DNA from: Candidatus Nanosyncoccus sp.
GTDB lineage: Bacteria > Patescibacteriota > Saccharimonadia > Saccharimonadales > Saccharimonadaceae
Length of the DNA stretch: 64,000 nucleotides
Reading direction: 5' to 3'
Assembly (NCBI GenBank): GCA_045546095.1
Contig: JAZQCE010000010.1
Location: forward strand, 5,712 to 69,711
The stretch's first letter is position 1; every line of letters begins with the position of its first letter. Below are positions 3,647-59,103 of this stretch, piece after piece. Below the pieces are notes generated by a model. The model saw only the letters and a list, made by a program, of their open reading frames with translations. It had not been told where the DNA came from and made no database searches. The translations under genes and the position numbers were made by a program.

Positions 3647-3713
3647 ATATGACGGGTGGTTGCATGTGTTTTTATGCTGTCAGAAAAACACATGCAACCA
3701 GGACCCGTCATAT
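3647..3713. repeat. Long hairpin / inverted repeat
   Basis: Perfect 16-bp stem GGTTGCATGTGTTTTT (3657-3672) / AAAAACACATGCAACC (3684-3699) plus outer ATATGACGGG/CCCGTCATAT that overlaps the HNH gene stop. Confidence 0.85.
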
Positions 3714-4451
3714 CCCTATAACTCGTTCATTAGGACAATTGGAAAGAATCTGACTGATGGCATCTTTCTCTGCCTCTGTCACCCATAGCGAATATTTGTA
3801 TTTTACCGACACCTGCCTCGCCACATACTGACACCGAAACTTCTTATTCGCCGGCAACCACGTCGCCGCATCACCATCCGATTTTTTCTTGTTTGCCGCC
3901 GCATCCACTGCCAATAAATTCAGCGGGTCCGTAGCTAGTTCATAGCGTTTCTCTGCCGCAAGGTTCTGCGCTCCCTTTTGCCACGCATCAGACAGCGCCA
4001 CCACATGGTCTATCTGTATGCCATTAGAAATCTGCTCTCGCTCTGTATATTTCATATGCTCCCCAGTATACGGCTCGTCATATTCCCCAGCCAGCACATT
4101 GCATCCATCCAGTACCGCCGTCTCACCAAACTCCCGCTTGATGATTTTTTGTCGCAAATTACATCCCTCCACAGTCGGCCACCCATTATAAAATTCTTCA
4201 CGCGAATACCCAGTCTTTGGTGCCCGCCCCTTTACTTCAAGTTTCTCCAAAATCTCTATAGCTAGCGGCTGAGACTCGTCTGCAGGAGCACCACTCGCCT
4301 CGGCCTCCCAATTCTCCGTATCGTATTCCGCCCCCGCGTTTTCCGTAGGTGTAAAAACCGCCTCGTAGCTTTCGGGGTTCACCACCAGCCAAATCAAAGC
4401 CAGAATCAGAGCCGCCCCCACTACCGACAACCTCCGAGCTTTTAGTTTCAT
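3708..4451 (-). CDS. Secreted HNH endonuclease family protein (DUF1524/GmrSD C-terminal-like)
   Basis: N-terminal TM; IQIDHVVALSDAWQKGA, LNLLAVDAAANKKKSD, WLP..CQYVARQ motifs. Confidence 0.85.
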   Translation of the reverse strand: MKLKARRLSVVGAALILALIWLVVNPESYEAVFTPTENAGAEYDTENWEAEASGAPADESQPLAIEILEKLEVKGRAPKTGYSREEFYNGWPTVEGCNLRQKIIKREFGETAVLDGCNVLAGEYDEPYTGEHMKYTEREQISNGIQIDHVVALSDAWQKGAQNLAAEKRYELATDPLNLLAVDAAANKKKSDGDAATWLPANKKFRCQYVARQVSVKYKYSLWVTEAEKDAISQILSNCPNERVIGI

Positions 4452-4469
4452 ACCCTCATTATATCAAAG

Positions 4470-5252
4470 CTAATCTTCTTTTCGCAAAATCTCTGGATTT
4501 AGATGCTCGGTATTAGCTAAATCCTCGCCATCCCCCCGATGCTCCGCCAAAGCTTCCTCATCGGTTGCAGTTTCCGCTACATCATCCTGCACTTTTTCCC
4601 TCTGTGCGGCTAATACCTGAAACAGTTCCGTCAACCCTCGCACACCATATCCGCTCACCGCATATTCAAAATACCCTTTACCGGCCGCCTTCGCGCCCGC
4701 ACGGAGCTCCTCGTATCGCGGGTCAGCCCCCTCTACCTCAGCAATCAATTCTTTCATATCATCGAGAGCCTTAAACGCCCCCTCTACCGACTTTTGCCCA
4801 GACGGCCTATTCACACCTTCACGAAACTCAGCCTCGCTAGCCGCAGCCGCCCCAGCTTCATCCCGCACTTCCCTATATCCTTCTGGCGTATCCACACCCA
4901 AATACTTAAACAAATCTCCAATCGGATCAGCCCTACCACTAGCATCAAACCCTTTTATTTTTTGCACAACAGTCTCCACCCCCATTTCTCGCGCCGCCGC
5001 ATTCAATCCATAATTAATCAATGCTGCCGCGTCAGCAATTCCAGCATTATATTCCGCCCCGGTTTCCTCAGCTCCACCATCTTTTGCCTCTCCATAATAC
5101 TCATTATCCGGATTCGCCACCCCGAGTTTATCACCAGCAAACTCCGGGACACCAGCCTCCATCACTTTCTCAAAATCTTGTTCCGGCGGCACTACTCGCT
5201 CTCTTTCTACTTGTTTGCCAGGGGCTACTTCAAAACTATTATCGTCGTACAT
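4470..5252 (-). CDS. Acidic hypothetical protein
   Basis: 260-aa ORF in operon-like spacing with its neighbours; no recognised motif. Confidence 0.75.
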   Translation of the reverse strand: MYDDNSFEVAPGKQVERERVVPPEQDFEKVMEAGVPEFAGDKLGVANPDNEYYGEAKDGGAEETGAEYNAGIADAAALINYGLNAAAREMGVETVVQKIKGFDASGRADPIGDLFKYLGVDTPEGYREVRDEAGAAAASEAEFREGVNRPSGQKSVEGAFKALDDMKELIAEVEGADPRYEELRAGAKAAGKGYFEYAVSGYGVRGLTELFQVLAAQREKVQDDVAETATDEEALAEHRGDGEDLANTEHLNPEILRKED

Positions 5253-5260
5253 TTTCCTCC

Positions 5261-55774: not shown

Positions 55775-55863
55775 TTTACGAAGTAAAATTCTTGCTCCCG
55801 CGTGAAACAAACTCCCGCATTTACGAAGTAAAATTCTTGCTCCCGCGTGAAGCAAACTCCCGC
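55775..55863 (+). repeat. 45-bp-period tandem duplication abutting the ligA stop
   Basis: TTTACGAAGTAAAATTCTTGCTCCCGCGTGAA(A/G)CAAACTCCCGC at 55775-55818 and 55820-55863. Confidence 0.9.
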
Positions 55864-57971
55864 TACCCCACCAGCTTCAAAAACTCGCTCTCACTCATCC
55901 GCGAAACACCCAGCTTGTCCGCTTTTTCGGTCTTAGATTTTCCTGGTTTTTCTCCCATAATCAGTGCTGTAGTGTTCTTAGTCACCGACGAAGTTACTGT
56001 CGCCCCCAGCTGGCGCAGCTTATCCTCTGCCTCTTCTCGCCCCATCGACGCCAAAGTCCCAGTAATGATATATGATTTCCCTTCGAGTGGCAAATCCGCC
56101 TTGTCTTCAACAAGCGGCGAAACCCCCAGCTCCTTCAAACGTCTGAGCATGTTCAGATTATCCTCATCACTAAACCACGCCAATATCGATTCTGCTACCA
56201 CCTCACCAATATCAGAAACTTCCAACAAATCATCCTTGGTCGCCACCTCCAGTTTTTCGATTGTTTTAAATTTCCGAGCCAAACTTACCGCTGTTTGCGC
56301 ACCCACATGCCTAATCCCAAGTGCAGTAATAAATTTCGCAAGCGTAGGAGTCTTTGATTCTTCGATCGCTGCCACCAAATTCTTAGCCGAAATCTCACCA
56401 AACCGCTCCAGTCTCGCAATATTATCAGCTTTTAATGCATACAAATCTGCAACGGACCCTAGCAATCCTGCATCTACCAAAGCTTCTACGTTCTTCTTCC
56501 CCAACCCCTCAATATTTAGCGCAGGCTTAGATGCATAATACTCCACTGCTCTTTTCAAAATCAAGTCACTAGACTCGCCTTTTACCCTATATACTACTTC
56601 ACCTTTTGGTCTGTCAAAGACAAGCTCTGGATATTGTCGCCTCAAAGCCTCTTTGTAATCAAACGGCTGCGTCCCATCTGGGCGAAGTTGCAAAAGTACT
56701 TCTTTGACTTGCGGAATAATGTCACCCGCCTTATAGATAATCACCGTATCACCAATCCGCACGTCCAACCTAGCAATCTCATCTGCATTATGCAAAGACG
56801 CATGTCTTACCGTAGTACCAGCTACCTCTACTGGATCAAAAATCGCTACCGGCGTAGCTGCACCAGTCCGCCCAATTGAAATCACGATGTCCCGCACCTT
56901 GGTCGTAGATTCCTCCGCTGGAAATTTAAATGCCACCGCACCGCGCGGAGTCTTGCCTACGATACCCAGCTCATCATACATATCCTGATCATTAATCTTT
57001 ATTACCATGCCATCTGTATTAAAAGGCAATCCTTTACGGTATTCATCCAAGTGGTCAATATAATCAAACAGCTCTTTTTTCTCATTCGCCCCAAACACCC
57101 TATCTTCATTAGAAGTCTGGAACCCAGCCTGCCTCAACCACTCATACGACTCCGAGTGCGTTCCAAGCCTCGGTTCCACTAAGCCATAAGCTATAAACCT
57201 CAGCGGCCTCGAGGCTGCCACCCTAGGATCCAGCTGTCGAATCGATCCCGCTGCGAGATTACGTGGATTTGCAAATTCTGGCTCCCCCTTCTCACGCTGC
57301 CGGCGATTGAGCTTCTCAAAATCTTCCTTGAAAATAACGATTTCCCCTCTTACCTCAACCTCGGAGAGCCCAGCACCATCTTTCTCGGGTCGCGTCGCCG
57401 TCACCCGTCGCCACGGGGACGGCGCGCTGATACTCGCGCTGCCGCGCTCCGTAATCCCCTCAAAAGAGGTGCTGCGGCTCTCAAGATTAATCCGAAGCGG
57501 TACGTTCTCAATTGTTTTTACGTTAAGCGTTACGTCTTCGCCTACCAACCCGTCTCCCCGAGTCACCGCTTGCACAAATACCCCGTCACGATATTTGAGA
57601 GAACACGCCAGGCCATCCATCTTGATATCAGTAAAAAATTCTTTAATCTTGCCACCCGGCACCAGTTTTTCGTTCCGAGAAATCCAGTCCAATACTTCTT
57701 CCCTCGAAAACACATCGGCAAGACTAATCATCCGTCTGCCATGCGCAACCTTTTCAAACTTATCTAGAGGTTTCCCTGCCACGCGTTGCGTCGGCGAATC
57801 CGGTGTAATTAACTCTGGATACCTAGCCTCGAGCGTCGCGAGTTCGTGCTTTAGAGAATCGGCCGCCGCCTCACTCATAATAGATTCATCCAGCACATGG
57901 TAGTGATACCGATAATCATTAATCAAATCTCGCAACTTTTCGATGCGCTTCTCTACTTCCACTCTATCCAT
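55863..57971 (-). CDS. ligA: NAD-dependent DNA ligase (with in-frame hairpin insertion)
   Basis: [35 protein letters not shown] domain. Confidence 0.97.
57364..57482. repeat. Hairpin element family B, copy in ligA
   Basis: Arms GAGAGCC(-)CAGCACCATCTTT / AAAAGAGGTGCTGCGGCTCTC; core aligns with the lepA copy. Confidence 0.85.
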
Positions 57972-57990
57972 ATTATTTATTTTATCACAT

Positions 57991-59103
57991 TTAAGTATCT
58001 AGCATCCAGCGATAATATAGGTACAAATATATCGTCACATAAATCGCAGTAAAACAAGTCATCGTAGCCAAACATATTGGCACAAACGGTATCCCCGCCG
58101 TCCATTCAAAATTCTTCATCCCCATATCAAATAATATTAATGGCAACATTATTACCACCCACAATATCGCCACTGCAATAATTAAAGCTATTAATCTAAT
58201 GATAAACTTTATCCTGCGCCCCATCATTAATTCAGAAGCGGTACGCAGCGCCTTCCACGGATAGAGCCCTGGCGCCGACACCGCCACTAGCGCAATTAAT
58301 GAGCTAGACAACAGATAGCCCGACAATATTATCATTAATGCCGCAAAGATGAAAAACACCAACGCATAAAAAGGGGTCGCCAAGAAGTCAGTCTGCACCG
58401 CCGCAGAATAAGCCACAATTAATAAGAAGATCGGAATACACTGTATTAACGCCACCACAAATACCACAAAGGTAGAGATTAATGGCGTCAGCGCATTATA
58501 AAGTCCATCTCTTAGTGTCACTTTGTGACCAGCCATAATATGCCGGACCAAAAAAATCGAAACCAGCCATATAATCAAGAAAATCAAGACGCCAAACACC
58601 GTCGCAACTTCACTGGCTTCTCCAGACAATCCGCCAGTAGTAATAGTAGAAATAAGCAGCAACCCAGCTTTCGCCACATTCCCTATATCACCTCCAGCCA
58701 CCTGTGCGCTAGTCTCGTCTAATATTTCCTGATATTGAGTGTATGCATCTTCACTCATTATCCCCACAAGCAAAGCATTCACTACTACCGCCAACACCAA
58801 AAGCGGCAAAAACAGCTTCCAATTTTTAAAAATCATCTTAAACGTCGCAAAAATATGCTGCAATATACCCGGCGTAGGAGTCTCTTTCACATAATCCTCT
58901 CGATACGATCGCTTGAAAGATTTGTGCGGGCTCGGCGCAAATCGTCCATTCAGAAACGATTTTAAAGAAGTTAAAACGCGGATGAAGCGCGAGGAAGAAG
59001 GAGCAGCGGAACGAGACGTACTTGATGGTACGTCGAGCGAGCAGCGCACCTTCTGACGACGCGATTCACCGCGTTTTGACTTCTTAGAAGGTTTTCTTGC
59101 CAT
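57991..59103 (-). CDS. Multi-pass membrane protein
   Basis: About six hydrophobic segments; the N-terminus reads through a hairpin element. Confidence 0.8.
58965..59085. repeat. Hairpin element related to families D and A, at the htpX / membrane-protein junction
   Basis: Arms AAGAAGTTAAAACGCGG(A)TGAAGCGCG / CGCGATTCACCGCGTTTTGACTTCTT; GAGACGTACTT..GTACGTC core shared with 37006. Confidence 0.8.

Follow-up and report, generated by a model that had tools for sequence, protein, structure and literature searches.

Introduction

Several families of hairpin repeats that lie in frame in the housekeeping genes of a reduced genome have been described as Rickettsia palindromic elements (Ogata et al. 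2000, 2002; summarised in PMC10969869). At inverted repeats in general, template switching can copy one arm from the other in a single multi-nucleotide event, which results in perfect stems, apparent compensation and growth of the repeat into neighbouring sequence, including coding sequence (PMC8794818, PMC13100816, PMC8604942). Long, near-perfect and copy-specific coding palindromes with actively maintained arm identity are known from the mitochondrial genes of Nematomorpha, for which template switching or repeat conversion has been proposed (PMC6649704). The present study concerns a group of hairpin elements found in a 64-kb stretch of DNA (the window), positions 5712-69711 of a contig from the 832-kb, 27-contig genome of a member of Saccharibacteria, whose UvrD protein in the window has Candidatus Nanosyncoccus as its nearest named relative. 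Like the Rickettsia elements, as these are characterised in PMC10969869, they are hairpin repeats of ~90-190 nt that form several families, are placed in frame in unrelated housekeeping genes, apparently add a peptide through translational read-through and lack their own transposase. The original prediction for this window, that such hairpins are non-autonomous insertion elements with copy-specific stems, is supported by the results presented below.

Materials and methods

The whole genome was scanned for inverted repeats with an arm score of at least 14 and a spacer of 10-220 nt, and three Markov shuffles served as the control. Core families were defined by blastn with the window copies, and the remaining hairpins were clustered for further families. 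Same-genus genomes, labelled G001, G004, G005, G006 and G007, were the source of orthologs, and insertion lengths were read against these orthologs with an uncertainty of a few residues in the alignment of protein loops. Length bookkeeping against E. coli or PDB homologs was dropped in their favour, as its imprecision amounted to ~+/-4 aa. UvrD homologs from relatives are designated by P numbers (P0005, P0007, P0033, P0036, P0038, P0043, P0062, P0084, P0085 and P0107). The closest genomes available have ~78-79% protein identity to the source genome, and the best UvrD homolog is 79% identical; the exact S15 protein of the source genome, searched as a route to same-strain empty sites, is not on record. 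The direction of replication was read through local GC skew, which is only a proxy. In the assembly, ARAGORN identified 71 tRNA genes in 832 kb, about ten contigs are just 1.5-2 kb long and contig C8 consists of N only; redundancy or foreign contigs may be present.

Results

Conserved cores and private stems

The scan returned 100 long hairpins genome-wide, compared with 1, 2 and 1 in the three shuffles. Together they make up 1.2% of the genome, and 12 of them fall in the window, where all the hairpins listed in the original prediction were found in place. The core families comprise A (32 loci), B (27), C (9), F (8), 'H' (7), E (3) and D (2), with at least eight families overall. Their cores are GC-rich, and most of them have a common foot, roughly TYGRGGRAC...GTYCCYCGA, directly outside which a T-run and an A-run are located, family A excepted. 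The predicted grouping into families with conserved GC-rich cores is real, with the reservation that the hairpins at 3647-3712 and 55597-55691 are plain or terminator-like and that D consists of just two, weakly related copies.

Outside the cores, information content drops to ~0 within 8-12 nt, and none of the arms has a second match in the genome beyond chance (best 10-14 nt). In 26 pairs of B copies with cores at least 95% identical, the identity of the arms was 0.57-0.59, while that between arms of different families was 0.52. The ~135-nt cores of the eight F copies are 97-100% identical and their 15-20-nt arms differ. Similarly, five A copies have a derived, non-pairing chimeric inner hairpin in common, yet their arms are different. 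Within a copy, the two arms are ~95% complementary, with 21 mismatches at 418 positions in coding copies and 29 at 656 positions in intergenic ones. The expectation that arms would be near-complementary within copies and unrelated between sister copies was met with two partial exceptions: the C copies in lepA and ligA have ~18 nt of inner arm in common, and two F copies are ~75% alike in their arms. Copying of the arms from donor flanks elsewhere in the genome was rejected for want of any second match beyond chance. Slow drift of family-specific inverted repeats is weakened as an explanation by the flat relation of arm identity to core identity and by F arms that are unrelated at 97-100% core identity; it may still hold, as the cores are not a neutral clock.

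The mismatches in the arms are mostly transitions. On the sense strand of coding copies, 6 are of the G:T type and 11 of the A:C type, so there is no excess of G:U pairs, and gene-borne elements occur in either orientation relative to the host gene. These two observations point to maintenance of the arms at the DNA level and not at the RNA level. Selection for one closed stem in RNA, which had been put forward as an alternative to the insertion mechanism, was rejected on the same grounds.

Family A is mostly intergenic (24 of 31 copies). Long open frames contain seven A copies, 16 of the 27 B copies and seven of the nine C copies. The host genes in the window are ychF, lepA, the M1 aminopeptidase gene, uvrD/pcrA (two copies), ligA and a membrane protein gene; those beyond it include aspS, valS, ileS, leuS, lysS, tyrS, gatA, gatB, polA, priA, topA and typA, named from reading their translations and not by family search. 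Reading frames remain open through the coding copies, which are therefore presumably translated. The coding copies of a family have a core peptide in common, e.g. GHTQGRSAELTVP, and differ in the residues encoded by the arms. At the Rfam gathering score only tRNAs passed and no element was matched; at E<=5, a search of 30700-42700 gave nothing on the elements.

Maintenance of pairing and turnover of elements

Orthologous copies of the elements (uvrD sites 1 and 2, ligA and family X3) were compared between species. Both arms had changed at 37 positions, 34 of which are still complementary, against about one third expected by chance; 32 changes affected one arm. At uvrD site 2, two metagenome relatives carry copies at the same position with compensatory changes in the arms. 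The cores are almost invariant between species whose host proteins diverge by ~25%.

The families occupying a given site vary between species. At least six different families are present across species at UvrD site 1. The lepA and ligA sites hold B in G004 and C in the source genome, and the membrane-protein site holds D in the source genome and B in a relative. Even P0007 and P0062, proteins that are 95% identical, have different element families at the same site, and P0033 and P0036, also 95% identical, differ by a 29-aa inner module inside the same outer hairpin. The turnover of elements is fast relative to the divergence of host genes. Internal deletions leave remnants of the arms behind, as in UvrD homologs (P0084/P0085) and at the PepN site. 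At the latter, the hairpin in G001 and G007 is AT-rich, 12 bp long and core-less, with a loop of 5 nt (AAAACTGTTGTA AAAAA TACAACAGTTTT), and it could be either a remnant or a precursor of an element.

Host sequence in the stems

In at least six cases one arm is clearly host DNA: codons of YchF and LepA, the rpsO stop, the RLW codons of UvrD (for families X1 and X3) and, in one tRNA gene, its 3' half. This part of the original prediction, that one arm is host sequence in several copies, holds for these sites; at UvrD site 2, LigA and PepN most of both arms is extra DNA.

The family A element at 10986-11125 (+) lies in frame in ychF, and its left 15-nt arm consists of the host codons E-V-A-R-N-A. 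The core and the right arm (~125 nt, 41-42 aa) are missing in four same-genus orthologs, which lack exactly q200-240, and the left arm aligns with host D-L-V-K-P-A. In G005 and G006, other families occupy this site, and both arms are inside the extra DNA. In lepA, a family C element is placed in frame between domains I and II (32120-32259, +). Its outer stem GTAGTGGCGGCAGG represents the host codons V-V-A-A-G, for which G005 reads GTTGTGGCGACTAAA, and recurs downstream as a mirror copy; in its inner arm this element is similar to the ligA copy. In the family D element directly after rpsO (37006-37129, +), the left arm is the perfect mirror of a 17-nt right arm, which runs through the final S15 codons (L-R-K) and the stop and includes a further 6 nt.

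In uvrD/pcrA, site 1 is a hot spot just after the RLW motif, occupied in the source genome by an in-frame family B element (49931-50027, +). P0038, which bears family X3, and P0084/P0085 have 93% DNA identity and differ by a 75-nt in-frame indel. The outer arms GGTCGCTTGTGTCC / GGAYATAAGCGACC are kept in all three, and the left one encodes W-S-L-V-S of the invariant RLW motif. P0005 has W-T-L-I-S in the host, and its mirror has correspondingly GTCCA, as against GACCA opposite W-S. A comparison of P0043 (family X1) with the empty P0107 places the host codons D-L-L at the start of the left arm. In ligA, the in-frame family C element (57364-57485, +) adds ~37-39 aa relative to empty same-genus orthologs, and at its foot the host GAG (Glu) alone is mirrored, as CTC, whereas the ortholog has GAA/TTC. 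The mirror arm therefore follows changes of the host arm, as seen for W-S/W-T in UvrD and for GAG/CTC against GAA/TTC in ligA.

At two sites the whole ~90-nt hairpin is extra DNA. These are uvrD site 2, where all 89 nt of the in-frame family B element (48657-48745, +) are extra relative to empty orthologs, and pepN, the M1 aminopeptidase gene, where the entire in-frame family B hairpin (42541-42632, +; 27-31 aa) is extra relative to three same-genus orthologs. According to these comparisons, the proposed rule that the insert equals the core plus one arm is true at some sites and false at others. It is not general, because both arms are mostly or entirely extra DNA at UvrD site 2, LigA and PepN, to which the YchF orthologs of G005 and G006 can be added. 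No direct target-site duplication is visible at the inspected element flanks, where later extension of the stem could hide one.

Mirroring also takes place where there is no family core. The stem of the terminator-like hairpin after tRNA-Glu (55597-55691) reaches 28 nt into the tRNA gene, so that the 3' half of this gene is mirrored downstream, 21 of the 28 nt being in register (P ~2e-7). Four more tRNA genes have terminator-like hairpins that reach into the tRNA 3' end (C3:7756-7830, C3:102869-102945, C27:20233-20307 and C26:146-220). Host mirroring is real and, because core-less terminator hairpins at tRNA genes show it too, it is not tied to a mobile core. The idea that an inverted copy of the target is made at insertion is not supported as it stands: mirroring occurs at core-less terminators and continues after insertion.

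Distribution, orientation and candidate machinery

Of the 61 species in the genus, 28 have the 35-nt B core (at most 3 mismatches), with 1-22 copies each; 300 further genomes from the order had none. Many Bifidobacterium species in culture have exact matches, as do a few assemblies of Bulleidia, Clostridiales and Actinomycetes, and each of these copies has private arms of ~23-26 bp (e.g. L197:4941-5021 of Bifidobacterium merycicum DSM 6492). Cultured Saccharibacteria are epibionts on Actinobacteria. In Bifidobacterium, the B copies have near-perfect and mostly private arms with a median of 23 bp and a semi-conserved outer end, GCTGR.... Some Bifidobacterium copies with identical or near-identical arms recur across species and look orthologous. 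The B hairpin measures ~90 nt in total in both Bifidobacterium and Saccharibacteria, and from this equal size of the whole hairpin it follows that the B stem travels with the element.

The orientation of the cores tracks local GC skew (28:3 for A and 23:2 for B) independently of the strand of the host gene. The same bias reaches 40:3 in other, mostly Saccharibacteria, genomes, and Bifidobacterium B copies have no such bias with respect to GC skew. A preferred orientation with respect to the replication strand is characteristic of HUH transposition through single strands. A co-occurring RAYT/HUH partner, suggested in the original prediction, did not emerge: no Y1 HUH transposase (PF01797) was found in the source genome, in the 28 B-bearing genus genomes or in 13 B-bearing Bifidobacterium genomes, and none of the six genus genomes (of 61) that do have one contains the B core. 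This candidate was therefore rejected. A related autonomous insertion sequence was likewise not found among the Y1 HUH and reverse transcriptase searches, DDE transposases not having been searched for.

The sole reverse transcriptase of the source genome is part of a diversity-generating retroelement outside the window (contig C24:16610-19633). The enzyme has 383 aa (16974-18125, -) with IGNLTSQ and YVDD motifs. A pair of 266-nt inverted repeats lies at 16610-16874 and 19368-19633, and because 27 of their 30 mismatches fall at adenines of the first copy, this copy is the template repeat and its partner the variable one. As a mobiliser of the hairpins the enzyme was rejected, since it is of the diversity-generating retroelement type and nothing connects it with them. 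No SbcD homolog was detected in the source genome (estimated 98% complete), in comparison with 13 of 14 control genomes that have one; SbcC was not searched for.

Other elements of the window

In the stretch that separates the lepA stop from the next gene's promoter, family F is represented by an element at 30737-30903 (+) with a ~135-nt core and private arms of ~20 nt, which is absent from four relatives. The hairpin originally listed at 30782 is the centre of this larger element. Family E, which has 3 copies, is represented between the gene 16739-17263 and radA by an element (17277-17466, +) whose private outer stem is perfect over 25 bp. Upstream of pgk, the intergenic family B element at 52297-52455 (+) contains another hairpin, nested within the apical loop of the core, and its right arm abuts the TGTGTTATAAT box. 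The second family D element (58965-59085, +) is an in-frame insertion in a membrane protein of 370 aa, close to its N-terminus and at a position where a close relative has a B element. A hairpin of another two-copy family is located at 47773-47922, within the open reading frame 45604-47958 (-). The hairpin at 3647-3712 is a plain 20-bp one with a 4-nt loop and no family core; it is single-copy, and the gene 3708-4451 (-) has its stop codon in overlap with the right foot of this hairpin.

Two further family A elements lie upstream of genes. The one upstream of pnp (36082-36213, +) has a perfect 18-bp private stem and is one of the five copies with the common chimeric inner hairpin. In the one upstream of tRNA-Leu (40266-40405, +), the right arm provides TTGCGC 17 nt upstream of a TATGAT box. 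On both sides of family A elements, the arms often bear TTGCGA/TTGCGC at 17 nt upstream of the next gene's TATAAT-like box (window 40392-40425, C3:54336-54430 and C12:4824-4920), and they may act as outward-facing promoter halves. The pattern TTGnnn-N16-18-TAnnnT occurs at 8 of 48 family A arm sides and at 4.5% of random genome positions, a control that includes no intergenic set, so the donation of promoters by these arms is suggestive only. Elsewhere in the source genome, at C4:3581-3699 and C21:35729-35862, TTATCCACA / TTTTCCACA boxes are clustered in both orientations; these clusters look like DnaA-box arrays and would be candidates for an origin of replication.

Discussion

The hairpins are best explained as small non-autonomous mobile elements, similar to Rickettsia palindromic elements or MITEs (miniature transposable elements with inverted repeats), with stems that fold-back template switching both homogenises and extends. 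To this explanation we give about an even chance of being correct. Each element comprises a constrained conserved core and a stem that needs only to pair. The cores have spread within the Saccharibacteria genus, the B core reaching Bifidobacterium, and the elements land, or survive, at few permissive sites that are reused by different families. In many stems the outermost part pairs host sequence with an inverted copy of it. The arms would be homogenised, and at times would grow outward into the flank, as the replicating polymerase undergoes intra-strand template switching (fold-back copying) at the hairpin, a mechanism known to correct and expand quasi-palindromes. Such copying may act at any stable hairpin in the genome, terminators beside tRNA genes included, and may be tolerated in the source genome because the SbcCD hairpin nuclease is missing, as far as the absence of SbcD indicates. 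The private stems would then be a mix of drifted element-borne stems under correction, remnants of older elements at hot spots and newly mirrored host flank. Because of the strand bias, the cores may move via single-stranded DNA at the replication fork. A bolder extension, rather improbable at present, is that the cores are transposase-independent mobile DNA, a short hairpin copied between loci by template switching at the fork, with a private stem (re)written by fold-back synthesis, and passing between Saccharibacteria and Actinobacteria (Bifidobacterium). Copying of cores by such switching would account for the strand bias, the reuse of hairpin hot spots and the swapping of cores.

Several observations weigh against stem homogenisation by fold-back switching. 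No single template-switch event has been observed, the closest genomes having ~78% protein identity, and nearly the whole stem is extra DNA at UvrD site 2, LigA and PepN. The conserved mismatch in the foot of B (TGAGGAC / GTCCGAA) stays uncorrected, as does the non-pairing chimeric inner hairpin of five A copies; because both persist, either correction is not universal or the cores are held by selection. The combination of 97-100% identical F cores with unrelated arms needs long conservation of the core or gene conversion. Moreover, arms with a conserved outer end, GCTGR..., and no skew bias are found in Bifidobacterium, and the rules governing the elements may differ between hosts. It should also be considered that GC skew is a mere proxy for the direction of replication.

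The stem could instead be built by the element's own integration, in which the core would join one end of the target, fold back and prime copying of the adjacent target sequence. Arms that are unrelated between copies with 95-100% identical cores would be expected from such a process, as would the single host arm in YchF, rpsO, LepA and the UvrD families X1 and X3 and the YchF insert that equals the core plus one arm; the strand bias also fits a fork-linked single-strand process. However, the whole stem is extra at UvrD site 2, LigA, PepN and the YchF of G005 and G006, the B hairpin is ~90 nt long in two phyla with a conserved outer arm end in Bifidobacterium, core-less terminator hairpins mirror as well, and the arms co-vary long after insertion. 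No enzyme candidate came out of the HUH searches of the source genome, the genus and Bifidobacterium. Mirroring at integration is not needed to account for the stems and misfits the sites with both arms extra, and it is considered rather unlikely. The finding of different core families at one site in different species points to another possibility, namely that cores home into the loops of pre-existing hairpins (remnants of older elements, terminators or chance palindromes), whose arms would be older and site-specific. Similar inner arms around a B core in G004 and a C core in the source genome at the ligA site, the arms-only hairpins at the PepN site and in P0084/P0085, the second element nested in the apical loop of the B core at 52297-52455 and the inner-module difference between P0033 and P0036 agree with homing. 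Nevertheless, it leaves the origin of the first hairpin at a coding site unexplained; the arms-only alleles look like deletion derivatives, since family X3 is widespread in the clade, and arms at the same site are mostly unrelated between species. Homing into hairpins is therefore regarded as quite unlikely.

Selection at each locus for a functional module, such as a DNA cruciform or an RNA structure bound by a conserved protein and serving regulation, chromosome organisation or mRNA stability, would keep the stems paired by ordinary compensatory selection. It is consistent with cores that are much more conserved between species than arms and host genes, with pairing kept over long times and with some A arms that supply -35-like boxes. 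The distribution is nonetheless patchy, as copy numbers range from 0 to 22 between species and many of the orthologous sites are empty, and elements occur inside and outside genes and in both orientations in mRNAs. In addition, they have no G:U signature and no Rfam family match, they decay by internal deletion, and the mirroring of a tRNA 3' half would harm tRNA folding, all of which makes this explanation very unlikely. A 27-contig, metagenome-type assembly raises the question of fold-back artefacts of assembly or amplification, an objection already anticipated in the original prediction. It is effectively refuted, with a negligible probability left to it, as independent assemblies of other samples and species have the same elements at identical positions in genes, with compensatory differences, frames stay open through the elements, and core and arms are also present in cultured Bifidobacterium isolates, type strains included. 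Fold-back switching at mobile, non-autonomous elements thus remains the preferred explanation.

The results imply that, in a bacterial genome that is among the smallest, hairpin insertions of 90-190 nt are tolerated by essential genes and acquired by them again and again. With ~100 loci per 0.8 Mb and cultured Bifidobacterium carriers, these elements may provide a dense natural system for fold-back template switching, a process so far mostly inferred indirectly, which here would rewrite codons of conserved proteins and mirror tRNA genes. A 35-nt core spreads with a replication-strand bias, with no HUH transposase found and with exact copies in a second phylum. Furthermore, the elements make proteins longer and give an appearance of 'compensatory' evolution, and they can mislead annotation, RNA-structure prediction and alignment in Saccharibacteria.

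In comparison with known systems, a private stem that partly mirrors host DNA is a feature of no described bacterial repeat family. Rickettsia palindromic elements, as described in PMC10969869, are conserved over their full length together with their peptide, whereas here the core alone is common and the stem is private. Unlike in Rickettsia, the stem is partly an inverted host copy, gene sites are reused by different families, orientation tracks GC skew and one core is common to a second phylum (Bifidobacterium). The elements are similar to bacterial MITEs such as Correia, ERIC and BOX/RUP in being small, non-autonomous, multi-copy and palindromic, in lying both between and inside genes and in carrying, in some cases, parts of promoters (PMC10969869, PMC3184786). 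They differ from them, in the source genome, by the lack of family-conserved terminal inverted repeats, of a visible direct target duplication and of a related insertion sequence, the last with DDE transposases outside the search. A hairpin basis and an orientation bias, for which GC skew is the proxy, are shared with REP/REPIN-RAYT and IS200/IS605-derived elements, unlike which there is no Y1 HUH transposase, many copies are inside genes and the stems are not conserved. As in template-switch correction and expansion, one arm pre-exists as host DNA and the other is its inverted copy, and 34 of the 37 both-arm changes are complementary; in contrast to the described cases, the process would here be seeded by ~100 mobile GC-rich cores in 0.8 Mb and reach 15-30 bp into essential and tRNA genes. 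Finally, in the palindromes of Nematomorpha both arms encode conserved protein and no core is inserted, whereas the elements described here are net insertions of 27-42 aa built around a conserved mobile core.

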